Shown here: in pieces, positions 1 through 12,229 of the stretch
Layout: each line of letters opens with the position of its first letter
How positions within the stretch are numbered: the stretch's first letter is position 1
Source: Alphaproteobacteria bacterium
Lineage (GTDB): Bacteria; Pseudomonadota; Alphaproteobacteria; SP197
NCBI GenBank assembly: GCA_965207785.1
Contig: CBDBNO010000010.1
Coordinates: 202,108-266,107, forward strand
Direction of reading: 5' to 3'
Length of the DNA: 64,000 nucleotides
Position numbers and translations under genes: made by a program
The notes under the pieces: model-generated
What the model saw: only the letters and a program-made list of their open reading frames with translations
What the model was told of the DNA's origin: nothing
The model's database searches: none

Positions 1-1373
1 TGCGCAAGATAATCGCGAAGATCGCGCAACAAGGCTGTTTCGGCACCTCCGGCGACGGCAAGGAAATCCTCGGTATCGGCAAGAGCCTTGGGGAGCGTTA
101 GCCAGGGAACTGCACTTTCGGCAGCCATGAGGCGTTGCGCCACGCCGATTTCATATGCGTGGCGGGCTGGTTCCGGCATAACTTCGGAAGCTTCGGTGTG
201 GATGAGTCTCTCCCCTAAGATTTGAAGGCGGGCATCAGACAATCCTTGCAGAATCGCCGGGCGTGCGGACCATTCGGCCAAATGGAACGCGGCCATAGCT
301 GTCTGATCGTCAATTCCCGTAAAACCGTCATAGATTTGCTCTTCGACGTGCCGGGACGGTTTCTTCGGCTCGCGGGTTGCGAGGAAAGCGGCAATGAGGC
401 GTTGGACAAGCACGTTGTCGCGGCGGACGCGCGCAGCGCGGTCTCTCAGATCCACAATGTCCGGCACCATAGATTGTATGTGCTCGGGCGCATCATCATA
501 CAAGGCAACGCACGGACAGGCGTTGGCACGCAAAACTCGCACGGGCTTCGGTCTAACGGAAAGCCGTTCAACCAATTGGTGGTCAGGGAGAACGGCCAAC
601 TCTTCGGGATCTACGGCAAGGTTGAACACAAACAGCTGCGAACTGTTGTCCGGATTGGGTCCAAGGTTCGTAACCATCCAGGAGTACACGTTGCCGAAAA
701 AGATGTCGGTGAGGGAAAAAAACTCTTCCTGCTCCACAAAATCCAATACGGCGGCTTTCTGGGAGAATCGGACAAAGTTCGACCAGTGGCCCTCAGCTCG
801 ATCGGCTAGGATGCGGCATACATGGATCGTCGCCTCCACGTCACCCATTGCATCATGGGCAGCAAATTGGCTGTAGCCGTTGATCGGAGCAAGCATGTCA
901 AGCTTGAAGGTAGCCCGACCACTCTTGTCGATCGGCAACGAAAGAACACCTGGTTGGAACAAGTTAATCGCCTTCATGATTCGCAGACTGTCCGAACGGG
1001 AATTGCCGTTTGTATTGGTGAGGTATGGGGCGTGCAGAGTCTTGAATAGTGCCTGGCGTAGAAGATGCTCGTCGAAGGCCATGGAGTTGTGGCCGACGAA
1101 GATCGCCGGCGACCATTCATCGAGCTTGGCCTTGATTGCGCGCACCATCTGGTAATGGCTGGGCAGGTCCGGGGCGATGAGCTCGTCAATGGTTATGGCT
1201 GTAACGCGCATGGCACCAGGCGACGGTACGACGTATGGGAGCAGTCGGCAGCGAATTTCAAATCGTTCCAATTCGCGCAACTCGTGATCAGTCCTGATCG
1301 CGCCGAACTGGAGAATTTGGTCGAAAGCGGTGTTGGTTCCTGTGGTTTCCGTGTCGTAGAATACGAAACTCAA
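1..1373 (-). CDS. sbcB: Exodeoxyribonuclease I (SbcB-like DEDDh 3'-5' exonuclease); partial, C-terminal end lies beyond window start
   Basis: Hand translation of the minus strand from TTG at 1373 gives LSFVFYDTETTGTNTAFDQILQFGAIRTD...NSRSDSL...HAHDAMGDVEAT, matching ExoI motifs (DxE, HAHDAM). AGGAG lies 8 nt upstream. This ORF is not in the supplied track because it starts with TTG and runs off the window. Confidence 0.75.
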   Translation of the reverse strand, partial: MSFVFYDTETTGTNTAFDQILQFGAIRTDHELRELERFEIRCRLLPYVVPSPGAMRVTAITIDELIAPDLPSHYQMVRAIKAKLDEWSPAIFVGHNSMAFDEHLLRQALFKTLHAPYLTNTNGNSRSDSLRIMKAINLFQPGVLSLPIDKSGRATFKLDMLAPINGYSQFAAHDAMGDVEATIHVCRILADRAEGHWSNFVRFSQKAAVLDFVEQEEFFSLTDIFFGNVYSWMVTNLGPNPDNSSQLFVFNLAVDPEELAVLPDHQLVERLSVRPKPVRVLRANACPCVALYDDAPEHIQSMVPDIVDLRDRAARVRRDNVLVQRLIAAFLATREPKKPSRHVEEQIYDGFTGIDDQTAMAAFHLAEWSARPAILQGLSDARLQILGERLIHTEASEVMPEPARHAYEIGVAQRLMAAESAVPWLTLPKALADTEDFLAVAGGAETALLRDLRDYLA

Positions 1374-1391
1374 GCTGGTTTCTCCTAGATG

Positions 1392-1925
1392 TCACGCGAA
1401 CAGGTTTCCAAGCCGAAAACGCATGGCGGACGTACTGACCTTGAAGCTTCTGGCCAACGCGGTCACCGCGCTTTCGTCGTCGATGTCGAACGGCTCGTTG
1501 CCCAGCGCCTTCGCAAGCATGGCTTTCGGCATCAATAGTTCCGCAGCAAAGAGGTTGGCTTCGATCTCCATCACGTCAACTCCTTCCGTCGATACCGAAT
1601 CGCGCATCAGCATCGGAGATGCCAAGGCTTTATCGACGTGCACCTCCTTGGTGATTTGCGACTTGTGAAGGGTCAAGTGGCCGCATTCATGGGCGATGGT
1701 GAAGCGCTGGCGGTTGGGATGGTGAAGAGCATTGACGCCGATTATCGGTTTGCCGTCCTTCAAGTAGATCATCCCGGATAGTTCGTCATCAAGCGGCGAA
1801 AATCTCAGTGTGGCGCCGAGTGTTCTTACAATCCGTTCGACAGGAACTGGCGGAGCCATCACTTCATGGTCGTCAAGAAGGGACTGTGCCCGGATCAAGA
1901 TAACCTTTCTTCGTCTTGGGTTCAT
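1392..1925 (-). CDS. ImmA/IrrE-family zinc metallopeptidase (COG2856, CapP-like)
   Basis: 177 aa with the HEXXH motif (IAHECGHLTL) in the family-typical position. Its ATG overlaps the stop of the upstream XRE gene (ATGA at 1925-1928). Confidence 0.85.
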   Translation of the reverse strand: MNPRRRKVILIRAQSLLDDHEVMAPPVPVERIVRTLGATLRFSPLDDELSGMIYLKDGKPIIGVNALHHPNRQRFTIAHECGHLTLHKSQITKEVHVDKALASPMLMRDSVSTEGVDVMEIEANLFAAELLMPKAMLAKALGNEPFDIDDESAVTALARSFKVSTSAMRFRLGNLFA

Positions 1926-2299
1926 CAGTCGGTCTCCGGTGTTTCTTGGTTATCGGTGTGCAGGGCATCACCTATCAGACGCAACACGTCCTGCCGTTGC
2001 GTTTCGCTGAGTCCCTCGGCGGGAAGGGGCAGCTCAGCAGGCTCGTCATCACGGGGGGGCGGCAGTGGCATTAGAACACCCGGGGAATCGAGGTCGAGTG
2101 CGGTGGCGATGGCATAAAGGTGATGCAGCAGGACTTGCTGACGGCCGGCTTCAATGTTGGCGAGTGACGCGCGCGAGATGCCGATTTCGGCAGCGAGCTG
2201 GGCTTGGGTGCGGGGAGCGCCCGCACGAAAGTGCCTGATGTGCCGGCCCACTTCCCTATAGATGTCACTTGGCCTCATGTGTGGATAGTACCGGAACAC
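1925..2299 (-). CDS. XRE-family HTH transcriptional regulator (CapH-like repressor) with acidic C-terminal tail
   Basis: HTH_3-like segment TQAQLAAEIGISRASLANIEAGRQ. Translationally coupled to the downstream ImmA gene. An alternative ATG start lies at 2278. Confidence 0.8.
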   Translation of the reverse strand: MFRYYPHMRPSDIYREVGRHIRHFRAGAPRTQAQLAAEIGISRASLANIEAGRQQVLLHHLYAIATALDLDSPGVLMPLPPPRDDEPAELPLPAEGLSETQRQDVLRLIGDALHTDNQETPETD

Positions 2300-2330
2300 A
2301 CAAGAGATGCCAAGCTCGCAAACAGCATAT

Positions 2331-2345
2331 GTTTGTTTAACAAAC
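2331..2345. promoter_or_regulatory. Inverted repeat GTTTG-N5-CAAAC in an AT-rich divergent intergenic region; candidate operator for the XRE regulator
   Basis: gtttgtttaacaaac read directly. It sits in the only AT-rich stretch (2320-2370) between the divergent XRE gene and the Ubl operon. A TTGACG -35-like hexamer is at 2365-2370. Confidence 0.35.
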
Positions 2346-2452
2346 GTGTAAGATGTTTTTTTTCTTGACGGGCCAGTTCATCGGTGCGATGCTACGGATT
2401 GAACCGGGCACAGAGGCGCCCGACCACCTGAACGGAAATGAGGTGTTGAACT

Positions 2453-3178
2453 ATGGATGAACGCAACCTGGTCGTAGAGGACCGCAACCATCCGCGGGAT
2501 GGTGTGGAACGAGAAAAGGGCCCGTCCGGCACCTTCACAATCAATGTGGGCAACGACGCTCTCGAGTTCCAGGGTGTAGACATGAAAGATCCGGTGCCCA
2601 CGGGCCGTCAGATTATCGAGGCGGCCAAGCTAGGCCCAGTCGAGGCGTTCCTGCTTTTCGCCGTCTCTCATGACCGCCGGCTCAGTGAAGTCAAACTTGA
2701 TGAGACCGTCGATATCCGCGGAGACGCCGAAAAGCTCTTCCTTGTCTTCAAGAACGACCGGTCTTGGCGCGGGCTCATCGACGGCAAGCGGTTCGAGTGG
2801 GGCGCGGAGGCAATCAACGGCCGCGTGCTGAAGTGGCTGGCTGGAGTCGATCCCGCAACGCACGGCGTTTGGCTCGAACTGCGAGACGAACCCGACCGGC
2901 TGATCGGCGACGACGAACAGGTGTCGCTGTCGACTGCAGGTGTCGAACGCTTTCGGACCGACCCGCTGTTTCGCGTGTGTGTCGAGGACGAATTCCATCC
3001 GTGGACTCGGCCGACCATCACGACTGAGGAGATTGCCGCGTTGGGCGGTTGGGATATCTCGCAGGGCGTTATCGAAGTCGACCCTGACCAGAACGAGCGC
3101 ACACTTTCGCCGGAAGAGGTCATCAAGCTGCGACCCGATGTGTCGTACGGCAAGAAGCTTCGTTTCAAGAGGGGATAG
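2453..3178 (+). CDS. Multi-ubiquitin (tandem beta-grasp) ubiquitin-like protein, BilA-like; C-terminus ...LRFKRG
   Basis: 241 aa. Residue pattern resembles the Multiubiquitin family that travels with prokaryotic E1/E2/JAB genes. It ends in a single Gly before the stop. AGGTG RBS 9 nt upstream. First gene of a 4-gene operon. Confidence 0.65.
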   Translation: MDERNLVVEDRNHPRDGVEREKGPSGTFTINVGNDALEFQGVDMKDPVPTGRQIIEAAKLGPVEAFLLFAVSHDRRLSEVKLDETVDIRGDAEKLFLVFKNDRSWRGLIDGKRFEWGAEAINGRVLKWLAGVDPATHGVWLELRDEPDRLIGDDEQVSLSTAGVERFRTDPLFRVCVEDEFHPWTRPTITTEEIAALGGWDISQGVIEVDPDQNERTLSPEEVIKLRPDVSYGKKLRFKRG

Positions 3179-3180
3179 CT

Positions 3181-3570
3181 ATGAACTCGCGGATCGAGTC
3201 CGAGTTGGCACTTCTCCGGCTGCACTACTCCAGGGTGGACTATCTGGCGGAGAACGCGATGCACTGGTTTAGGGTTGAGATGCTCAAGACGCCCAAGAAA
3301 TGGGCGCCGGCAGAAATCCCCGTCGTGTTCGCCGTCACCGAAGGCCACCCTGGCGCGCAGCCTTACGGCTTCTTTGTGCCCGGGGAGTTGAACTTGGATG
3401 GCAATCCGCCCTCCGAGCATGGTGCGCCCCACCCCCCTCCGTTCGAGGGCATCTGGCGGTTTCTGTCGTGGCAGCCGGAAGGATGGCACCCAACAGGCGA
3501 TGTGCGCTCGGGCTCGAATCTGTGGGGCTGGGTACGGACATTCATGCACCGGTTGAGGGAAGGAGTCTGA
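3181..3570 (+). CDS. E2-like (UBC-fold) protein, BilB position; contains no cysteine
   Basis: 129 aa in the operon position of the E2. Has a HPG...GFFV segment resembling the E2 HPN...GxIC region, but there is not a single Cys in the ORF. Starts 2 nt after the Ubl stop. Confidence 0.5.
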   Translation: MNSRIESELALLRLHYSRVDYLAENAMHWFRVEMLKTPKKWAPAEIPVVFAVTEGHPGAQPYGFFVPGELNLDGNPPSEHGAPHPPPFEGIWRFLSWQPEGWHPTGDVRSGSNLWGWVRTFMHRLREGV

Positions 3571-3574
3571 AGGG

Positions 3575-4093
3575 ATGAACACCCTCATGTTAGACAAAGA
3601 CCTTCAGCGCCGCCTCTGGTCCCATCTCCTGCGCAAGGACTCGATGCAAGAACAGGCCGCTTTCCTTTTCTGCATGACGGAACCCGCAGATTGCGGGGTG
3701 ACGTTCGTGGCGGTTGATCAGGCCTTTCTGGGACCAGACGACTTCGTCGCCCAGCGTACTGACTACCTGGAACTGACGAATGAGACCCGGATCAGGCTGA
3801 TTAAGCGAGCGCATGTCCTAGGAACCTCGCTGGCCGAGCTTCACTCGCACCCTGGCCCTTGGCCGGCAGCTTTTTCTCTATCCGACCGGATTGGATTGAG
3901 AGAAACCGTACCGCATATGCGGTGGCGCTTGAAAAGGCGGCCCTACCTGGCCGTGGTGGTGGCGCCGTCAGGCTTCGACGCACTGGTTTGGTCGCGGGAC
4001 GCCAGGATTCCCGAGCCTCTGGCCGGGATCGACATTGGCGGCGAGCTCATGACGCCGACCAACTTCTCACTCGGAGGATGGGACGATGACTGA
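3575..4093 (+). CDS. JAB/MPN+ (JAMM) metallo-isopeptidase, BilC-like
   Basis: 172 aa with an upstream Glu and ELHSHPGPWPAAFSLSD, i.e. the HxH...S..D JAMM motif. GGAAGGAG RBS. Confidence 0.8.
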   Translation: MNTLMLDKDLQRRLWSHLLRKDSMQEQAAFLFCMTEPADCGVTFVAVDQAFLGPDDFVAQRTDYLELTNETRIRLIKRAHVLGTSLAELHSHPGPWPAAFSLSDRIGLRETVPHMRWRLKRRPYLAVVVAPSGFDALVWSRDARIPEPLAGIDIGGELMTPTNFSLGGWDDD

Positions 4094-4943
4094 GGATCGC
4101 TTTGATCGGAATGAACAGTTGTTTGGCAAAGAGGGCCAAGCTCGCTTGCGGCGTACCCGTGTGGCCGTCATGGGGGCAGGAGGGTTGGGCAGTCACGTTA
4201 TTGCGCAGGTTGCACTGCTCGGGGTGGGCGACATAGCGGCGGTTGACCGACAATGCGTCGCACGTTCAGATCGCAACCGCTATCTCGGCGTGTGGGACAA
4301 GGATCCGATTCCCGGGTCGCCAAAGGTGGCGCTCGCGAAACGCCATATCCACTTGATTGATCCCAGGATTACGGTCACACCGATTAAGGACGACATACTC
4401 TCGGCGCCCAGCCTCGGCGCGATTCAAAAGGCCGATTTCGTTTTCGGATGTGTGGACAATGACGGGGTCCGATTCTTCATCAACGAGGCATGTCTTGCCT
4501 ACGAGAAGCCGCTGATCGATCTGGCTTCCGACGTGCCTGAACCAGGGGTGTTCGGCGGCCACGTTGCGATCGTCTCTGGTAGTCTTGGCTGCATGCACTG
4601 CCTCGACCTTCTTGATCCCGACGAGGTGCGCCGATACCTCTCACCGCCCGAATTAGTTGAAAACGAAGACGCTGTCTACGGGATCAAGGCGAGCGCGCTT
4701 GCGGAGACCGGCCCTTCGGTTGTATCGGTGAATGGGGCAGTCGCCTCACTTGGCGTGACTGCTTTCATGGCACTAGCGACAGGAATGCACCTCCCTTACG
4801 CATTCCTGACCTATCGTGGAGACCGAGGTACAGTCACGCGCAAGACGATCAAGGCTGCCGAAGACTGCTACTATTGCTCCGTGGTGCGCGGTCAGGGTGA
4901 GTGGGCGAATCTTGAGCGGTACTTTCGAAAGGCCGCTGCTTGA
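4086..4943 (+). CDS. ThiF/MoeB-family E1-like ubiquitin-activating enzyme, BilD-like
   Basis: 285 aa. Rossmann motif VAVMGAGGLGSHV. Two Cys pairs (GCMHC, CYYC) form a MoeB-like Zn site. Overlaps the JAB gene by 8 nt with a GGAGGA RBS. Confidence 0.85.
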   Translation: MTEDRFDRNEQLFGKEGQARLRRTRVAVMGAGGLGSHVIAQVALLGVGDIAAVDRQCVARSDRNRYLGVWDKDPIPGSPKVALAKRHIHLIDPRITVTPIKDDILSAPSLGAIQKADFVFGCVDNDGVRFFINEACLAYEKPLIDLASDVPEPGVFGGHVAIVSGSLGCMHCLDLLDPDEVRRYLSPPELVENEDAVYGIKASALAETGPSVVSVNGAVASLGVTAFMALATGMHLPYAFLTYRGDRGTVTRKTIKAAEDCYYCSVVRGQGEWANLERYFRKAAA

Positions 4944-4945
4944 AC

Positions 4946-5007
4946 ATGCATGCCGATCATATTGAGCACTGCGCCGTACATCCTACGGACTTTCGGCATG
5001 CATTGTG
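4946..5007. terminator. Long imperfect hairpin immediately after the E1 stop (possible operon terminator / island boundary structure)
   Basis: catgcatgccga (4946-4957) pairs with tcggcatgcat (4997-5007). A nested ccgta/tacgg stem is inside. No clean U-tract follows. Confidence 0.3.
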
Positions 5008-5186
5008 AGTTCCCTGTCTGTCTTGCCAACTGACCGCCTACCACGTCTTCCAATCCACGTCCTCGAACAGATGCGCACGCGTGTACTGCCGCCCATTGAT
5101 ATTGGCCTGTGAAACAGAGAATTCCGCTACTTGTGGAGTATGGCCTGGGCACTTCCGCTAAGAGGAACCGAACCGCTGACGCGACG

Positions 5187-5456
5187 TCAAGACTGTCCCG
5201 GCATTCGGAGCTCGAGGTGAATAGAGTCCACGGTAGCTAGTGAGATCAGCTTCACGGCCTCAGCCACAATGTATCCGTCGCTCGCCTCGATCACCAAGCA
5301 ATCGAGCCCTGCCCGAGCGTAGCGAGGGCATAGATCCAGGATCACGTGGTGCTCCCAACCGGAAGGACGACCACTCCAAATTGTCGGATCGTGATTGCGA
5401 AGTTTATCGGCTTGAAGTAGTCGGGTACGCCGTGCCATTGCCTGACTGCGGACCAC
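5187..5456 (-). CDS. Hypothetical small ORF / possible gene remnant
   Basis: 89-aa ORF starting at GTG 10 nt after the proW stop. Its GC3 (about 58%) is far lower than the flanking genes and there is no recognisable motif. Confidence 0.2.
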   Translation of the reverse strand: MVRSQAMARRTRLLQADKLRNHDPTIWSGRPSGWEHHVILDLCPRYARAGLDCLVIEASDGYIVAEAVKLISLATVDSIHLELRMPGQS

Positions 5457-5466
5457 GAGATCTTCG

Positions 5467-7548
5467 TCAGGTGGAAAGGCCGAGGTCGCGTTTCTTGCCG
5501 GCGGCCCAGGCCTGGATGATGCGGTCGGCGATCATGGCCATGAGGGCCATGGATCCGCCGGCGATGACGCCCTGGCCAAACTTGGCGTTGGTGAGGCTGT
5601 CGTAGACCCATTGGCCGAGACCCTTGGTGCCGACGAGGGCGGCGATGACGAGCATGGCGAGGGCGAACATCACCACCTGGTTGAGGCCCACCATGATCTC
5701 CGGGATCGCGAGGGGGAGCTTGACCTTCCAGAGGACCTGGCGCTCGGTGCAGCCCATCATGCGGGCGGCCTCGATGGCCACGGGATCGACGTGGCGGATG
5801 CCGTGCTCGGTGTAGCGGATCGCCGGCACGATGGCGTACATGATGATCGCCAGGAGCGCCGAGAAATCCCCCACCAGGAACACCATCACCACGGGGATGA
5901 GGAAGACGAAGAGCGGCATGGTCTGCAGGGTGTCGTTGATCGGCCGCAGGACGGCGGAGACACGGTCGTTCTGCGCCGCCCAGATTCCTAAGGCCCCGCC
6001 GGCCACGAAGCAGATGATGACCGAGGTGGCGGTGAGGTAGAACGACAGCATGGCCCGTGGCCAGGCGCCGCTCACCAGCATGAAGAGCATGCCGAGGAAG
6101 GCGAACAGCGCAACCCTCCAGCCGCCGACCTGAAAGGCGATGAGCGTGACGGCGGCCATGAAGACGGGCCACGGCGTGCCGGACGAACCGTAGTAGAAGA
6201 GGATGCCCAGGAGCGCCGTGGCGACGGCGGCGCGCCAGCCGCCCAGCCTTGCCGCCAGGGTGCCGATGGCCACCAGGATCATCCAGTAGATGACGGAAGC
6301 CAGCGCCGTCATCTCGAACCCCCACGAGGTGGGCCGCGCAATCCTTTCGAGGCCCGCCTTCATGGGCAGCATGAAGAAATAGAGCGTGTAGGTCTTGATG
6401 GCGTCCGTGGTGTCGAAGAAGTTGCGGGTGAACCAGGAGACCGCCGTGTTGAGGCCCTCGGCCGGGTAGATGATCCAGGCATCGGGATAGGCGTTGAACA
6501 CCGGCACCGCCCATGCGAGCAGCGAGCCGGCGGCGACCGCTGCGACCATGGAGGTCAGCATGGGATGGCGGGCGATGTAGTTCCCTGAACGATGCACGTG
6601 GATCTCGCCCGAGCGTTCGGCGAAGCCGCGGCTGATGCGGTCCATCATCATGGCGATCAGCACGATGACCAGTCCGGCCAGCAGGCTCTGGCCGGTCTGG
6701 GCCTTGCGCATCGTGGAGAGCACTTCCCAGCCGATATCGGCGAAGCCGCCGATGATGGCGGCGATGATGACCATGGCGAGTGCCGCCATGATGGTCTGGT
6801 TGACGCCGATCATGATCGTGTGCATGGCGGCCGGAATGCGCACCAGGAAGAGAAGCTGGAAACCGTTGCAGCCGGACATCTGGCCGCTCTCGATGACGTT
6901 GTCGGGAACCCGCTGCAGACCCAGCATGAGATTGCGGACCATGGGCGGGCTGGCGTAGACCGCCGAGGCCACCATGCCGACCACCGGCCCGATGCCGAAG
7001 AGAATCAGGATGGGAATGAGATAGGCGAACGTCGGCACCGTCTGCATGACGTCGAGCGTCGGTTCGATGACGCGCCGGGCCCAGCGGAACTGGAAGCCGA
7101 GCAGTCCCATGACGAACCCGATCATGATCGAAAGCGGCACGGACATGCAGACCAGCGCCAGGGTCGACATGCTCTCGTCCCAGTATCCGACGACCACCAT
7201 GTAGAAGAGCGAGGCCGTGCAGAAGGCGGCGAGACGCCAGCCCTTGGCGGCGTAGGCGATGATCGCCACGATGGCGATCGTGACCGGCCACGGCGACGTC
7301 TGCAGCACGATCTGGATCCCCTCCATCGGCCATTCGAGGGCATCGGAAATCAACCGGAAGAGCGGCTTGAAGTTGGCCGTGAACCAGTCCATCAGATACT
7401 CGAGGCCGGCCTCGATGGGGAGAATCCAGCCCTTCGGATACTTGACGAGCCACTTCGCGTCGTCACGCAGGATGAGGCAAACAATCGCCAGGACGCCGAA
7501 GACCAGCCAGACCAAGAGCCTGGGCGGCAGCAGGCGCGCCGGGTTCAC
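5467..7548 (-). CDS. Glycine betaine/proline-type ABC transporter permease, duplicated (fused double ProW-like) transmembrane protein
   Basis: 693 aa, very hydrophobic, with two BPD_transp_1-like halves. ATGA overlap with the downstream ATPase gene. Confidence 0.85.
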   Translation of the reverse strand: MNPARLLPPRLLVWLVFGVLAIVCLILRDDAKWLVKYPKGWILPIEAGLEYLMDWFTANFKPLFRLISDALEWPMEGIQIVLQTSPWPVTIAIVAIIAYAAKGWRLAAFCTASLFYMVVVGYWDESMSTLALVCMSVPLSIMIGFVMGLLGFQFRWARRVIEPTLDVMQTVPTFAYLIPILILFGIGPVVGMVASAVYASPPMVRNLMLGLQRVPDNVIESGQMSGCNGFQLLFLVRIPAAMHTIMIGVNQTIMAALAMVIIAAIIGGFADIGWEVLSTMRKAQTGQSLLAGLVIVLIAMMMDRISRGFAERSGEIHVHRSGNYIARHPMLTSMVAAVAAGSLLAWAVPVFNAYPDAWIIYPAEGLNTAVSWFTRNFFDTTDAIKTYTLYFFMLPMKAGLERIARPTSWGFEMTALASVIYWMILVAIGTLAARLGGWRAAVATALLGILFYYGSSGTPWPVFMAAVTLIAFQVGGWRVALFAFLGMLFMLVSGAWPRAMLSFYLTATSVIICFVAGGALGIWAAQNDRVSAVLRPINDTLQTMPLFVFLIPVVMVFLVGDFSALLAIIMYAIVPAIRYTEHGIRHVDPVAIEAARMMGCTERQVLWKVKLPLAIPEIMVGLNQVVMFALAMLVIAALVGTKGLGQWVYDSLTNAKFGQGVIAGGSMALMAMIADRIIQAWAAGKKRDLGLST

Positions 7549-8612
7549 TCCGCATCCTCCCCGGCATGGCTGTCGGCGAGAGAGCTCAACACCATCTGGG
7601 CAGTGATGCTGCCAACGATGGCGCCCTCCCCGTTCTTCACGGCGATGACGTCCGAACCTTCGGCGAAGCGCGGCATGATCTCTTCGAGCGTGGCATGTTC
7701 GTCGACAACGTCATCGGTGGCGGGATGGGAAGCAGCAGCCGTGGCGATGTCGCCGGCGGTGATGACCTTCACCCGCGGCACGTCCTGGGTGAACTCGCTG
7801 ACATAGTCGTCGGCCGGCTGCATCACCACCTCGGCGGGGGTGCCGATCTGCACGATCCGGCCATCCTTCATGATGGCGATCCTGTCCGCCAGGCGCAGGG
7901 CCTCGAGGAAGTCGTGGGTGATGAAGACGATGGTCTTGTGGAGAAGTTGCTGCAGACGCAGGAACTCGTCCTGCATCTGCCGGCGGATCAGCGGATCGAG
8001 AGCGGAGAAGGGCTCGTCAAGGAACCACAGCTCCGGTTCGACAGCCAGGCTCCTGGCGATGCCGACACGCTGCTGCTGGCCGCCCGACAGCTCGCGCGGA
8101 TAGCTCGTCTCGCGCCCTCCCAGTCCGACGAGCTCGATCATTTCCATCGCCCGGGCGCGCCTTTCCTCCTTGGCGATTCCCTGGATCTGCAGGGGGAACG
8201 CCACGTTCTCGAGCACCGACAGATGCGGTAGGAGACCGAAGTTCTGGAACACCATGCCCATCTTGTGGCGGCGGATGTCGATCAGCTTGTCCCTGGAGAC
8301 CTGCAGGAGATCCTCGCCATCGAGAATCACCTCCCCTGCGGTCGGCTCGACGAGCCGGGAGAGACAGCGCACGATCGTCGATTTCCCGGAACCCGACAGG
8401 CCCATGATGACGAAGATCTCGCCGATGTGGACGTCGAACGTGACATCGCAGGCGGCACCGATGTGACCTGACTCGTTGATGGACCCGATCAGGCTTGTGG
8501 GATCGGCCACATCGCCATGGCCGTCCGTGAAGAACCTGTCGGCGTCGGGACCGTACACCTTCCAGACATGCCTGCACGTCAGCTTGACTTCCTGATCATC
8601 GGTTCCCGTCAT
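7545..8612 (-). CDS. proV: Glycine betaine/proline ABC transporter ATP-binding protein (ProV-like) with C-terminal CBS region
   Basis: Walker A (GLSGSGKST), ABC signature (LSGGQQQRV) and Walker B (LDEPFSALD). Confidence 0.9.
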   Translation of the reverse strand: MTGTDDQEVKLTCRHVWKVYGPDADRFFTDGHGDVADPTSLIGSINESGHIGAACDVTFDVHIGEIFVIMGLSGSGKSTIVRCLSRLVEPTAGEVILDGEDLLQVSRDKLIDIRRHKMGMVFQNFGLLPHLSVLENVAFPLQIQGIAKEERRARAMEMIELVGLGGRETSYPRELSGGQQQRVGIARSLAVEPELWFLDEPFSALDPLIRRQMQDEFLRLQQLLHKTIVFITHDFLEALRLADRIAIMKDGRIVQIGTPAEVVMQPADDYVSEFTQDVPRVKVITAGDIATAAASHPATDDVVDEHATLEEIMPRFAEGSDVIAVKNGEGAIVGSITAQMVLSSLADSHAGEDAE

Positions 8613-8782
8613 GATCTCCTCGCATGGGCCAAGCCTCGCTCCCGGACTGTCCCACTCCCCCCAGGACGGGACAATCTATCCGGTTGGTTCACAAAACGCC
8701 ATGATCCGGGCCGACGGTCTCGACCGGCCCTCGAAACAAGTGCACTATGGGACGCCATCTTGAAGGAGTCTGAAAGCAGGCC

Positions 8783-9916
8783 ATGCTCAGGACCGAGGAC
8801 ATCGAAGGCCTTGACCGCCCGACGGCTCAAGCCCGCGGCCTGCCGGGACATGCCTACACATGCGAGGACTTCGCCCGCCACGAGTACGCCCGGCTCTTCG
8901 CCAGGACCTGGACATTTGCCGGGTATGCCCACGAGGTGCCGGATGCCGGATCCGTCATGCCGAGGACACTGGCCGGCGTGCCCCTCCTCTTCACGCGCAC
9001 CCGTGACGGCGAGGTCAGGTGCTTCCACAACATCTGCACCCATCGGGGTACACAGCTCGTCGACGAGGCTGCCAGTGGTCTTGCCACCCTGCGCTGCCGC
9101 TATCACGGCTGGACCTACGATCTCGATGGCGCGCTGCGCCTGACACCCCACTGGGGCGGTCACAACCAGGGCCAGGGCGAAGGCTTCGAGAAGTCCTGCC
9201 ATGGTCTCAAGCCCGTTCGCATGGCGCGCTGGCACGACTGGATCTTCGTCAACGTCGATGGCCTCGCCGAACCCTTTGCCGACTACGCCGCCCCCTTCAT
9301 GGCCCATGTCGCCGAGTACGACCTCGACGACGCCACCTGGGCGCTGACGCTGCGCTACGACATTGCCGGCAACTGGAAGCTGGTGGCCGAGAACTACCTC
9401 GAGACGCTCCATCTTAACTTCGTGCACACCGTGCTCGCCGAGGCGGCTCCCTTCGAGCAGCACGAGGTCATCGCCGAGGACGCCTGTCTGGGCACCATCA
9501 TCAACGTCGGTCTGCCAGCCACCTGGACCAAGGCCGAGTCCCTTCCCCGCTGGCCGGGTATTGATCACGCCAACCGGACGGCCAAGAACCTGGCGCTCTT
9601 TCCCAACTTCAAGTTCGTGATCGGCCCCGACCATGCCTGCTCCATGGTGGAGTTTCCCGATGGCGCCGGCCAGTCCCACCAGCGCTGGGACTTCTACTTC
9701 CACGGCGACGGGGCCACGGCGCCGCGTTACGCCGAGTCAAGGAAGGCGATCATCGAGTTCTTCGACACCACCAATGTCGAGGACTTCAATGCCGTGGAGG
9801 CGGTGCACAAAGGCCACATGTCCCCGGCCATGCAGGGCGCCCGCTTCAACGGCATCTGGGAGGGGGGCGTGCACCACTTCCAGAAACTCGTTGCCCACTA
9901 CATGAGCGAACCATGA
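8783..9916 (+). CDS. Rieske [2Fe-2S] non-heme iron oxygenase alpha subunit (betaine/carnitine-type monooxygenase-like)
   Basis: The pair CTHRG...CRYHGW gives the CxH-x17-CxxH Rieske ligands. 377 aa. Adjacent to the betaine transporter genes. Confidence 0.8.
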   Translation: MLRTEDIEGLDRPTAQARGLPGHAYTCEDFARHEYARLFARTWTFAGYAHEVPDAGSVMPRTLAGVPLLFTRTRDGEVRCFHNICTHRGTQLVDEAASGLATLRCRYHGWTYDLDGALRLTPHWGGHNQGQGEGFEKSCHGLKPVRMARWHDWIFVNVDGLAEPFADYAAPFMAHVAEYDLDDATWALTLRYDIAGNWKLVAENYLETLHLNFVHTVLAEAAPFEQHEVIAEDACLGTIINVGLPATWTKAESLPRWPGIDHANRTAKNLALFPNFKFVIGPDHACSMVEFPDGAGQSHQRWDFYFHGDGATAPRYAESRKAIIEFFDTTNVEDFNAVEAVHKGHMSPAMQGARFNGIWEGGVHHFQKLVAHYMSEP

Positions 9917-10794
9917 ACACAGACGTCTTCATCACCTGTGCCGTGACCGGCGCCGGCGACACCACTGACAAGAGTCACCATGTGCCGGTGACGCCGGAGG
10001 CCATCGCCGATGCGGCCATCGAATCCGCCCGTGCGGGTGCAGCCATCGCCCACATCCACGTGCGCGACGTGACGACCGGCAAGGGCAACCGGGACAGGGA
10101 GGCCTTCCGCGAAGTCGTGGCACGGGTGCGCGACAGCGAGTGCGACGTCATTCTCAACCTGACCACGGGCATGGGCGGCGACTACATGCCCGATGCGGAT
10201 GATCCGGGGCACGCGTCGGCGGAAAGCGACATGACATCGCCCGAGGAGCGGGTGCTCCATGTCGAGGAACTGCTTCCGGAAATCTGCAGCCTCGATGTCG
10301 CCACCATGAACTTCACCGACGGCGCCTTCATCAACGTCCCCGATCACCTGAGGGTCATGGGCAAGCGAATCGCCGAGGCCGGCGTGAAGCCGGAACTCGA
10401 GTGCTTCGATCTGGGTCACGTCAGGCTCGCCAACCAGCTCATCTCCGAGGGAGTCATCGAGGAGCCGCCGCTCTTCCAGATCTGCCTCGGCGTGCCCTGG
10501 GGAGCTCCGGCGGATCCAGAATCGCTGATCGCCATGCGCAACCTGCTGCCGGCGAACGCCGAATGGTCGGCCTTCGGGATCAGCCGCATGCAGATTCCCA
10601 TGGCAGCGCAGGCCGTGATCTCGGGCGGCAACGTGCGCGTCGGTCTCGAGGACAACCTCTACCTGTCCAGGGGTGTGCTGGCGACCAACGGCCAGCTCGT
10701 GGAGCGCGCCGTCGAGGTCGTCGAACGCCTCGGCGCGCGGATCATGAGTCCCGCCGAGACGCGCCAGAAACTGGGCTTGACGAAGCAGTTCTGA
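9913..10794 (+). CDS. BKACE family enzyme (3-keto-5-aminohexanoate cleavage enzyme-like, DUF849)
   Basis: 293 aa with the typical N-terminus [11 protein letters not shown]...HIHVRD. ATGA overlap with the Rieske gene. Confidence 0.8.
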
Positions 10795-10811
10795 AGCTAA
10801 GGCGGCGGACC

Positions 10812-11225
10812 ATGGTGGAGAAGATCGTCAGGACCGATGAGGAATGGCGGTCCCAGCTGACCGAGGAGCAGTTCAGGGTCACGAGGCGCGCCGGAACCGA
10901 AAGGCCCTTCACCGGGATCTATCACGGAACCGGCGAACCGGGTCTCTATCGCTGTGTGTGCTGCGGTGCCGCACTCTTCGATTCCGCGACCAAGTTCGAG
11001 TCCGGCACCGGGTGGCCGAGTTTCTGGGCCCCGGTCGACGACGAGGCGGTCGAGCTCAAGTCCGACAGGAGCATCTTCTTCATGCCCCGGACCGAGGTGG
11101 TCTGCGCCCGCTGCGACGCACATCTCGGCCACGTCTTCCCCGACGGACCGCCCCCGACCCACCAGCGCTACTGCATGAATTCGGCCGCCCTTACCCACGA
11201 GAAGGCGAACGACGGCGGGACGTGA
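10812..11225 (+). CDS. msrB: Peptide-methionine (R)-S-oxide reductase MsrB
   Basis: SelR fold signature with both CxxC pairs ([21 protein letters not shown]). The supplied ORF has a spurious N-terminal extension; the start is set at the ATG after the BKACE stop. Confidence 0.85.
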
Positions 11226-12229
11226 AGCCCGGACCTCTCAATCTCATCACCGATGTCGACGGCATCCTCGTCGGTCAGGCGGAAGATCACCGCGTCAGGA
11301 CCGGTGTCACCGCCATCGTCCCGAGGGAACGCGTCACGGCCGCCGCCGACGTCAGGGGCGGCGCCCCGGGCACGCGCGAGACCGGCACGCTCCATGTCGC
11401 CAGCCTCGTCGACGCCGTGGACGCGGTCGTGCTGTCGGGCGGCTCGGTCTTCGGCCTCGATGCGGCAGGCGGCGCCGTGGCACGGCTGGCCGAGGAAGGA
11501 CGGGGGTTTCCCACCTCAGCCGGCAGGATTCCTGTGGTGCCGGCGGCCATCCTCTTCGACCTCGCAAACGGCGGCGACAAGGACTGGGGCCGACAGTCTC
11601 CCTACCCTGATCTGGGCTACCGGGCGGTCAAGGCGGCGGCGGACCGTTTCGACCTGGGCAACGCCGGCGCCGGGCTTGGCGCCAGCGCCGGAACCCTGAA
11701 AGGGGGAACGGGGAGCGCCTCGGCGGTCACCGACAGCGGTCTCCAGGTGGGAGCCCTCGTTGCGGTCAACGCTGTCGGATCGACGGTGATCCCCGGCACT
11801 TCGACGCTGTGGGCGGCGCTCTTCGAACAGGCCGGCGAGATGGGGACGGCGCCACGCTCGCTGCCCGAAGGTCCGGTGGACCTCGAGGACGAGTTCAAGG
11901 GCTTCGCGGCTGAGAACACCACCATCGGCGTCGTTGCGACCAATGCGACCCTCGACAAGGGGGCGCTCAATCGCATCGCCATCATGGCCCATGACGGGCT
12001 GGCCCGGGCCATCCGTCCCGTTCACACGCCCTTCGACGGCGACACCCTGTTCGCGCTCGCCACGGCGAGGCACACGGATGCAATCGATGCCGTCACGCTC
12101 GCACGCCTGGGCTCGATGGCGTCAGACTGCGTGACGAGAGCGACGGGAAGGGCCATGGTGGCAGCCCAGACCCTTGATGGCATGACGAGCTACAGCGACT
12201 GGAGGGATGGCAGGTGCCAACAGCAGTGA
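11222..12229 (+). CDS. P1/S58 family peptidase (DmpA/L-aminopeptidase-like)
   Basis: GTG start overlapping the msrB stop (GTGA). [22 protein letters not shown] is a typical DmpA N-terminus. Same frame as the long ORF 10844..12229. Confidence 0.75.

Follow-up and report, generated by a model that had tools for sequence, protein, structure and literature searches.

A Bub-like ubiquitin conjugation operon in a mobile alphaproteobacterial cassette, likely controlled by a CapH/CapP/ExoI switch

The window analysed here is the whole 64-kb stretch of contig CBDBNO010000010.1 (assembly GCA_965207785.1, Alphaproteobacteria bacterium; position 1 is its first letter), and close to its left end lies an operon encoding a ubiquitin-like protein (Ubl), an E2-like protein, a JAB metallopeptidase and an E1-like adenylating enzyme. 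Judged by homology, this operon belongs to the Bub (6e) lineage of bacterial ubiquitin-like conjugation systems and not to Bil (bacterial ISG15-like), and it very probably represents a Bub-lineage conjugation module under CapH/CapP-type control. It departs from published Bub systems in its split genes, its lack of BubE, its altered E2 active site and its ExoI-containing regulator. The locus is a mobile cassette of ~5 kb with seven genes in two divergent operons, and the best overall explanation, which we consider likely, is that this cassette places Bub-lineage conjugation under a CapH/CapP/ExoI switch.

The four genes lie on the plus strand at 2453–3178 (241 residues), 3181–3570 (129 residues), 3575–4093 (172 residues) and 4086–4943 (285 residues), in exact agreement with the Ubl-E2-JAB-E1 operon described in an initial annotation made from the same DNA. 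A gap of 2 nucleotides (nt) separates the Ubl and E2 genes, the two reading frames being parted by the stop codon plus these 2 nt, and the JAB and E1 genes overlap by 8 nt in different frames, both as first described; the gap between the E2 and JAB genes, given earlier as 5 nt, is 4 nt. The gene order Ubl-E2-JAB-E1 was kept in all of the ~40 related loci that we compared (designated here by L numbers), which vary in having a three-domain Ubl (Ubl3) or a single-domain Ubl1 and in gene fusion. Ubl and E2 are fused in five of them (L006, L034, L040, L042 and L043), JAB and E1 in four (L022, L025, L035 and L039).

Two families have to be told apart in placing this operon. Type 6d operons encode Ubl, JAB, E1 and a Cys-containing E2, and type 6e operons encode a polyUbl, a Cys-less ‘inactive E2/RWD’ protein, a JAB-E1 fusion and a metal-binding protein Y (PMC1779556, Table 1). 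In these terms 6d is Type I Bil, 6c/CEHH is Type II Bil and 6e/DUF6527 is Bub (PMC1779556, Table 1; PMC10557695; PMC11601596). The Bil E1 is built from an inactive adenylation domain (IAD), an active adenylation domain (AAD) and a CYS domain with a catalytic Cys, and the Bil E2 likewise has a catalytic Cys (PMC10557695; PMC11601596). In Bub, of which the authors list 544 operons, the relay runs through the crossover-loop residue Y370 of the E1 and S333 of the E2, with H335 and D299, and BubE is always present; the roles of the Tyr and Ser were established by mutagenesis, and the Cys-free BubB is an active E2 (PMC11601596). Anti-phage activity has been demonstrated for Bil only, with no protective Bub operon found so far (PMC11601596, Discussion). 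The initial annotation had assigned the operon to ‘Bil/6E’, a label that is not supported because Bil and 6e/Bub are two separate families. The operon is of the Bub/6e type, and the proof of anti-phage function in Bil does not automatically extend to it.

The E1 (4086–4943, plus strand) consists of a single ThiF/MoeB adenylation domain (Pfam ThiF, 7e-33, residues 7–255; no match to BilD_N) with a Zn site formed by C169, C172, C261 and C264, so that the minimal E1 with a Zn tetracysteine site noted earlier is borne out. Among 36 relatives the only conserved cysteines are these four Zn ligands and C122 of the adenylation motif. The crossover loop (residues 173–208, from C172 to the GPSVV strand) contains no Cys, and its Tyr198-Gly199 pair is invariant in 36 relatives. 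Searches of the PDB matched MoeB (1e-15), Uba4 and ThiF and then BubCD (2e-13), with no BilD among the 60 matches listed. The crossover-loop Tyr, the lack of a catalytic Cys and the 2e-13 match to the E1 domain of BubCD together point to a Bub-type E1.

The second protein (3181–3570, plus strand) had been called UBC-like. It does have an E2/UBC fold, with BubB as its best match in both sequence and fold, and the earlier description is to be corrected in that the protein has zero cysteines. A Pfam search with its single sequence returned no match, and its placement needed a family profile and a structural model. The profile search covered 1.84 billion representatives and gathered 349 members at E ≤ 1e-3, 223 of which were aligned to the profile. 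Searched against the PDB, this profile matched BubB and nothing else; relatives of the protein match Prok-E2_E, and ubiquitin E2 variant (UEV) and RWD domains are among its structural neighbours. Column 96 is Ser in 201 of the 223 family members and covaries with columns 62 and 98, the three reading D-S-H in 18 sequences and Y-S-(non-His) in ~180. W92, W97, Y62 and N113 are invariant around Ser96, and no His or Lys is invariant in the family. The E2 of Synechocystis (Prok-E2_E, 9e-56) reads SWQRWSRHEREW in this region and aligns without gaps to IWRFLSWQPEGW of the window protein. On these alignments Ser96 would occupy the column of the Bub catalytic serine, with Tyr62 replacing the Asp and Gln98 the His. 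The serine partners of known Bub E2s (Asp and His in Type I, Lys and His in Type II) are thus represented in the window by Tyr62 and Gln98. What the protein appears to share with Bub E2s is membership of the Cys-free Prok-E2_E/BubB family and an invariant serine, which we regard as putatively catalytic.

The Ubl protein (2453–3178, plus strand) has three beta-grasp domains and a free C-terminal Gly241, as seen in Pfam and PDB matches. Multi_ubiq matched it at 1.6e-31 over three stretches, and each third scored separately at 2e-9, 4e-17 and 1.5e-3; the C-terminus reads ...RFKRG, in line with the multi-ubiquitin protein ending in Gly that had been proposed. In the PDB it matched Ubl3 of M. brachiatum (8u38/9d5b, ~3e-24) and the BubA Ubl3 of E. 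coli ZDHYS365 (9cd2, 1e-21). Ca2+ is coordinated within and between dimers of M. brachiatum Ubl3 by D85, D131 and E148 (PMC11601603). Their aligned counterparts in the window protein are D102, D148 and E165; among 16 relatives the latter two never vary, and position 102 holds D or E. With three beta-grasp domains and acidic residues at the Ca2+-ligand positions of domains 1 and 2, the protein can be classed, by alignment, as a Ubl3. Ubl3 proteins are common to Type II Bil and Bub (PMC11601603), and therefore the Ubl does not discriminate between the two. The KRG end is invariant in 16 relatives; 9 of the 16 have 1–3 further residues beyond the Gly, and others carry a Ubl-E2 fusion.

The JAB/JAMM metallopeptidase (3575–4093, plus strand; 172 residues) carries the motif E26...H90-x-H92...S101-x-x-D104, which had been reported as intact and whose five residues are invariant in 36 relatives. 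Its Pfam match to Prok-JAB was 0.0014, under the curated cut-off. The JAB-E1 fusions of the four relatives named above have 457 residues, and that of L022 aligns with residues 9–410 of Citrobacter BubCD across both domains, the HSHPG motif included. The window itself has neither the Type I Bub fusions (Ubl-E2 and JAB-E1) nor the Type II fusion (E2-E1); the Ubl-E2 and JAB-E1 fusions of its relatives have the BubAB and BubCD architectures and so count for Bub homology. The profile searches suggested with the initial annotation placed the Ubl in Multi_ubiq and the E1 in ThiF, and for the JAB reached Prok-JAB only at the sub-threshold score just given.

A direct comparison with Bil was possible through L054, a bona fide Type II Bil operon with an 85-residue Ubl, a 152-residue E2 containing four Cys, a Prok-JAB protein and a 470-residue E1 with PF27312 BilD_N. 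BLASTP of the four window proteins against BilA–D of L054 gave nothing significant, the JAB aligning with BilC at E 0.65 and the other cognate pairs remaining unaligned at E ≤ 10. The window E1 comprises the ThiF domain alone, without BilD_N/IAD and without the ~80-residue CYS insertion, and the window E2, with no Cys compared to four in L054 BilB, lacks the catalytic Cys and adjacent His of Bil E2s (CEHH in Type II). BubB and BubCD, and neither BilB nor BilD, were present among the PDB sequence and fold matches of the E2 and E1. The one link to Bil by homology is the match of the Ubl to Bil-derived Ubl3, and the arrangement of four separate genes in the order Ubl-E2-JAB-E1 is that of Bil.

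In contrast to published Bub operons, this one has no BubE (DUF6527/PF20137) serine protease. Positive controls for BubE worked, in that BubE of Synechocystis matched PF20137 at 3e-22 and PF20137 labelled BubE in L057. When Synechocystis BubE was run with phmmer on the 64-kb window and all loci, translated in six frames, it retrieved only itself; DUF6527 occurred neither among 129 flanking open reading frames (ORFs) nor in the gene tables of the related loci, and two small ORFs past the E1 had no Pfam match. A regular expression for the BubE cysteine signature found nothing in the window, a weak result given that only one of three patterns recognised the positive control; because the patterns largely missed that control, it is the phmmer and Pfam searches that provide real evidence of absence. 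BubE-less relatives occur on plasmids of Nostoc, Mesorhizobium and Ca. Tenderia. Operons L045/L046, L047, L049 (Nostoc pNsp_c) and L050 (Mesorhizobium pMspAR07b) have a D-S-H E2 or a JAB-E1 fusion and no DUF6527/BubE nearby, which suggests that the wider 6e lineage does not carry BubE throughout. A protein of 529–562 residues without a Pfam match is encoded convergently to the E1 in L049 and L050.

Upstream of the Ubl operon, and missing from the initial annotation, a divergent capH/capP pair occupies 1392–2299. The capH-like gene (1925–2299, minus strand) encodes a 124-residue XRE-family helix-turn-helix (HTH) repressor (Pfam HTH_31 and HTH_3, 1e-9; PADLOC capH, 3e-8), and its stop codon overlaps the start of capP (ATGA). 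The capP-like gene (1392–1925, minus strand) encodes a 177-residue ImmA/IrrE (M78) Zn-metallopeptidase (Peptidase_M78, 8.9e-25) with an HECGH motif that holds its sole Cys; PADLOC matched it to capP at 1.6e-31, over model positions 8–150 of 242 only, and it consists of the peptidase domain alone. Running PADLOC had been proposed as a check, and it recovered these two genes while leaving the Ubl, E2 and JAB without a match, a silence that is no evidence either way because the canonical Bub proteins of Synechocystis were likewise unmatched. Characterised CapP is switched on by single-stranded DNA (ssDNA) and cleaves CapH (10.1101/2022.04.27.489752; PMC13228613), its HTH and GAF domains forming an ssDNA groove and a loop serving as cysteine switch (PMC13228613). 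CapH/CapP respond to DNA damage generally (10.1101/2022.04.27.489752) and accompany 31% of Bub operons (PMC11601596), and the pair is kept in most of the related loci.

The third gene of this minus-strand operon is exoI, encoding an SbcB-like DEDDh exonuclease at 1–1373 (minus strand), which runs off the window start with ~11 C-terminal codons missing. It starts with TTG at 1373, preceded by an AGGAGA ribosome-binding site and 18 nt past the capP stop, and its translation begins MSFVFYDTETTG. The initial annotation had read it as sbcB, the left neighbour of a small island; in its distance from capP, its G+C content at third codon positions (GC3) of 0.63 and its conservation with the other genes, it belongs to the cassette itself. 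Pfam found RNase_T and Exonuc_X-T_C, and E. coli ExoI structures were matched at 4e-36. The canonical ExoI equivalog NF008746 of NCBIfam has a threshold of 260 bits, above the 187 bits of the window protein and the 187–204 bits spanned by the window, L010 and L007 copies; the L010 copy, 80% identical to that of the window, matched PADLOC RTasSbcB over its full length (1.9e-114, 381 bits). By these scores the cassette ExoI appears closer to the defence-associated RTasSbcB than to canonical ExoI. In 11 related loci exoI lies 9–30 nt past capP. The copy in L011 (4797–6201) is apparently frameshifted into two ORFs.

The trio of capH, a short capP (~175 residues, the peptidase domain with no HTH/GAF part) and a 468-residue ExoI was found in the window, L007, L010–L012, L015–L020, L024, L052–L054 and L057. 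Four of five distant ExoI homologues that we sampled (61–70% identical) stand directly after capH-capP; L052 and L054 pair the trio with a divergent Type II Bil operon, L053 with an AAA+ ATPase plus ADP-ribosylglycohydrolase, and L057 with a BubE-containing Type II Bub operon. CapH, CapP and ExoI of L054 are 65%, 73% and 66% identical to those of the window. The three genes thus have the look of a portable regulatory unit. A text search of the CapH/CapP papers 10.1101/2022.04.27.489752 and PMC13228613 found no mention of ‘exonuclease’.

The extent of the cassette was delimited by comparison with L010 and L011, which share 80% and 77% DNA identity with the window, respectively, from position 1 to 4939–4955, that is, from exoI to the E1 stop and no further. 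GC3 is 0.63–0.78 in the cassette compared to 0.84–0.92 in the flanking transporter genes, as the lower GC3 noted earlier had indicated. Scanning 185,579 species genomes yielded 35 loci in several phyla, mostly in Alphaproteobacteria and also in Latescibacterota, Dehalococcoidia, Gemmatimonadales, Acidobacteriota and Gemmataceae; the rarity first suggested is therefore real, and the distribution is patchy, with horizontal spread among defence and mobile genes. Neighbours in the relatives include AbiE, Type I and Type ISP restriction-modification, GmrSD, HigB, DarT/Macro and MazF, together with ArdA, resolvases, transposases and type IV secretion system (T4SS) fragments. Only one plasmid, of Ca. 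Tenderia, carries a close relative of the E2, and a search of a phage collection gave no match.

Two putative regulatory elements lie between the divergent operons. A candidate CapH operator at 2319–2345 (no strand assigned) has the half-sites CAAAC-N7-GTTTG-N5-CAAAC, just before a TTGAC -35-like box at 2365–2369; the half-sites were found by eye and by comparison of loci, and an inverted-repeat tool reported none in the promoter region. Between capH and the Ubl gene, the same CAAAC/GTTTG arrangement followed by a TTGAC(A) box is also present in L004, L010, L012, L015, L032, L037 and others. A GC-rich hairpin can be drawn at 2405–2422 (plus strand), within the Ubl 5′ leader and ~30 nt upstream of its GAGG ribosome-binding site and ATG. 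RNAalifold on eight loci, a small sample, gave seven pairs, four of them with compensating changes on both sides, and Rfam had no match to the hairpin; its conservation is a lead only.

By homology to Citrobacter Bub, we consider it rather likely that conjugation proceeds by an oxyester relay from Tyr198 to Ser96. The E1, probably a homodimer like MoeB and BubCD, would adenylate Gly241 of the Ubl, which would then be passed as an oxyester to the crossover-loop Tyr198, from there to Ser96 of the Cys-free E2 and finally to lysines of targets. The JAB is most likely a deconjugase, because the window Ubl already ends in Gly and no BubE serine protease is encoded; it would act as a maturase too in those relatives whose Ubl is extended by 1–3 residues or joined to the E2. 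If the switch works as in characterised CapH/CapP pairs, CapH would repress the Ubl operon until DNA damage or phage-derived ssDNA activates CapP, the short CapP then cleaving CapH. The co-transcribed ExoI, as a 3′-5′ ssDNA exonuclease, would probably remove ssDNA and so reset the switch or set its threshold; to this specific role of ExoI in tuning the ssDNA signal we give somewhat less than an even chance. The analogy behind it is host SbcB, which sets the activation threshold of DRT10 (10.64898/2026.04.29.721553). Biologically, the cassette most likely serves inducible anti-phage defence or stress response, and for an anti-phage role in particular we put the chances at about even.

Several points weigh against this account. 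Pairwise alignment of the E2 with Citrobacter BubB by HMMER placed D299, S333 and H335 opposite Y62, W92 and F94, and S337-W338 opposite S96-W97; the assignment of Ser96 relies on family covariation and the Synechocystis alignment, not on superposition. This alternative register, with Ser96 at S337 rather than S333, was ruled out by the covariation and by the gap-free alignment. With Tyr62 and Gln98 in place of Asp and His, activation of an oxyester on Ser96 may be poor, or the E2 may operate in another way. In comparison with the protein described in PMC13228613, the window CapP lacks the HTH/GAF ssDNA-groove part and the Cys of the cysteine switch, and any sensing of ssDNA by the short form is putative. 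The exoI gene is absent from four relatives that have capP/capH, and the fifth distant ExoI homologue, in L056, has no adjacent capH/capP. This L056 exoI (6001–7407) stands alone at what is apparently the same hydantoinase-flanked chromosomal site at which L053 has the switch and its AAA+ system, which suggests that the defence operon was lost and exoI retained. The window does not reach the cassette's left end. Protection against phage has so far been reported for no Bub operon (PMC11601596), and this Bub-like subfamily is known from sequence alone.

Other explanations were weighed against the same evidence. If the operon were a genuine Bil system, in which a thioester relay from E1 to E2 tags phage tail proteins, its four-gene order would be that of Bil (PMC10557695) and its regulators, 65–73% identical to those of a real Type II Bil operon, would be in familiar company; this is nevertheless highly improbable, given a 285-residue ThiF-only E1 with no BilD_N/IAD, CYS insertion or crossover-loop Cys, a Cys-free E2 where L054 BilB has four Cys, the lack of significant BLASTP alignments to L054 BilA–D, and PDB matches to BubB/BubCD and not to BilB/BilD. 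The Ubl, non-discriminating as it is (PMC11601603), does not rescue it, and the missing cysteines and domains refute Bil membership. A sulfur-carrier or cofactor pathway of the ThiS/MoaD-ThiF/MoeB type, the housekeeping alternative that the initial annotation had itself raised, would account for MoeB, ThiF and Uba4 being the best non-Bub matches of the E1. The NCBIfam ThiF/MoeB equivalog scores of the E1 are all far under their cut-offs (e.g. 95 bits vs 275), no ThiG, ThiH, MoaE or rhodanese partner occurs in the ~40 loci, the operon contains an E2-fold protein, a JAB and a three-domain Ubl, and its distribution is patchy and horizontal; scores, partners and operon content essentially refute this pathway, and its probability is negligible.

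Two readings keep the Bub homology and differ in what the proteins would do. The E2-fold protein could be an inert RWD/UEV-like adaptor, with the E1 transferring the Ubl directly or the module controlling assembly of Ubl3 filaments. Such an adaptor was predicted for 6e operons by Iyer et al. 2006 (PMC1779556), and it would fit the absence of Cys, the replacement of the Asp/His partners by Tyr62/Gln98, the UEV and RWD structural neighbours and the conserved Ca2+-filament residues. We consider it unlikely, as Ser96 is near-invariant at the BubB catalytic column and flanked by the invariant W92, W97, Y62 and N113, a conservation typical of an active site, and the equally Cys-free BubB is an active E2 (PMC11601596). 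Alternatively, conjugation could proceed as described and serve a DNA-damage or stress response, or addiction to a mobile element, in place of anti-phage defence. This would agree with the response of CapH/CapP to DNA damage generally (10.1101/2022.04.27.489752), the co-encoded ssDNA exonuclease, the contexts with ArdA, resolvases, transposases and T4SS fragments, and the lack, so far, of any Bub operon protecting E. coli from phage (PMC11601596). Weighing on the other side, by association only, are a neighbourhood enriched in AbiE, restriction-modification, GmrSD, DarTG and toxin-antitoxin systems and a regulator trio that also drives Type II Bil, for whose family anti-phage conjugation has been demonstrated; we hold this second possibility to be a minority one, slightly better placed than the inert adaptor.

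Among the related loci, L003 (ENA ERZ26167216 ctg474907) has at 8001–9725 a decayed copy of the operon without a Ubl gene and with the E1 split into 210 and 68 residues; a HigB/HTH toxin-antitoxin pair stands in the place of capH/capP, and the locus adjoins Type I restriction-modification and a resolvase. To the right of the window cassette, 520 bp (4944–5466) separate the E1 stop from a ProW-like gene, with two minus-strand ORFs (86 and 89 residues) that have no Pfam match; the cassette similarity ends here. The right flank (5467–8612, minus strand) encodes a fused ProW-like permease (693 residues, two BPD_transp_1 domains) and a 355-residue ProV-like ATPase, an ABC transporter with host-typical GC3 of 0.84–0.92, so that of the setting proposed earlier, between sbcB and proVW, the transporter side holds. 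No tRNA, integrase, att site or insertion-marking repeat was seen on the right side, and Rfam and tRNA scans of 1–6000 and 1–12000 were negative save for a chance-level Hrs13 match.

With the Bub-lineage module under a CapH/CapP/ExoI switch as the preferred reading, a bolder proposal can be made, tentatively and with less confidence than we give to the tuning role of ExoI. The operon may represent an undescribed third oxyester (Bub) architecture, in which the genes are split, BubE is missing, the JAB is the only deconjugase and the E2 has a Tyr-Ser site in place of Asp-Ser-His; it would be driven by a previously unreported portable CapH/short CapP/ExoI switch in which ExoI is integral to the sensor. 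ExoI might supply or modulate the ssDNA signal that reaches a CapP without ssDNA-binding domains of its own, or could erase that signal. If this is true, one switch has been exchanged between thioester (Bil) systems, oxyester (Bub) systems and unrelated effectors. Bil has a known anti-phage mechanism, and Bub has known chemistry and no known biology; the occurrence of near-identical CapH-CapP-ExoI before Bil or Bub-like operons suggests that both chemistries are interchangeable outputs of one DNA-damage/ssDNA input, of which the shared regulators point to ExoI as an unrecognised component. A minimal Bub-type pathway with one activity per small protein and no second protease would be convenient for dissecting the Tyr-to-Ser relay, and it lets one ask what a JAB does when maturation is unneeded. 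The serine of the E2 apparently manages without Asp/His partners, a point that matters for the activation of serine E2s.

The closest described system is the Type I Bub (‘6E.1’) operon of Citrobacter sp. RHBSTW-00271 (PMC11601596; 9ea4, 9eae, 9eav), which resembles the window in its three-domain Ubl, Cys-free UBC-fold E2, JAB, single-adenylation-domain E1 with a crossover-loop Tyr and no catalytic Cys, and association with CapH/CapP. Citrobacter fuses Ubl with E2 (BubAB) and JAB with E1 (BubCD), whereas the window has four genes; it also differs from the window, which lacks BubE/DUF6527, has Tyr62/Gln98 for Asp299/His335 and joins an ExoI gene to the regulators. The 6e operon of Synechocystis sp. 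PCC 6803 pSYSX (NC_005232, 51619–55295; PMC1779556) shares the divergent capH/capP, a multiubiquitin protein and a stand-alone Prok-E2_E protein (126 residues there) encoded between the Ubl and E1 genes, but it has a fused JAB-E1 (471 residues), a DUF6527 gene (PF20137, 3e-22), a D-S-H E2, a two-domain Ubl and no exoI. Type II Bil (‘6C/CEHH’) of Ensifer aridi and M. brachiatum (PMC10557695) has separate genes in the order Ubl-E2-JAB-E1 and, in some members, Ubl3, and the Type II Bil loci L052 and L054 share the capH-capP-exoI trio with the window; this type differs in an E1 of ~450–500 residues with IAD (BilD_N), AAD and CYS domains and a catalytic Cys, in an E2 of ~150 residues with the CEHH Cys, and in its thioester chemistry, as opposed to the oxyester chemistry predicted for the window. 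CapH/CapP of CBASS and other defence operons are likewise an HTH repressor and an M78/IrrE-type peptidase encoded divergently from the operon that they regulate, although the characterised pairs have a full-length CapP and no ExoI gene described alongside. RTasSbcB of DRT systems, finally, is the PADLOC model matched over the full length by the cassette ExoI; unlike in DRT, the window exonuclease is encoded with a CapH/CapP switch and not with a reverse transcriptase, and its role would be in that switch.

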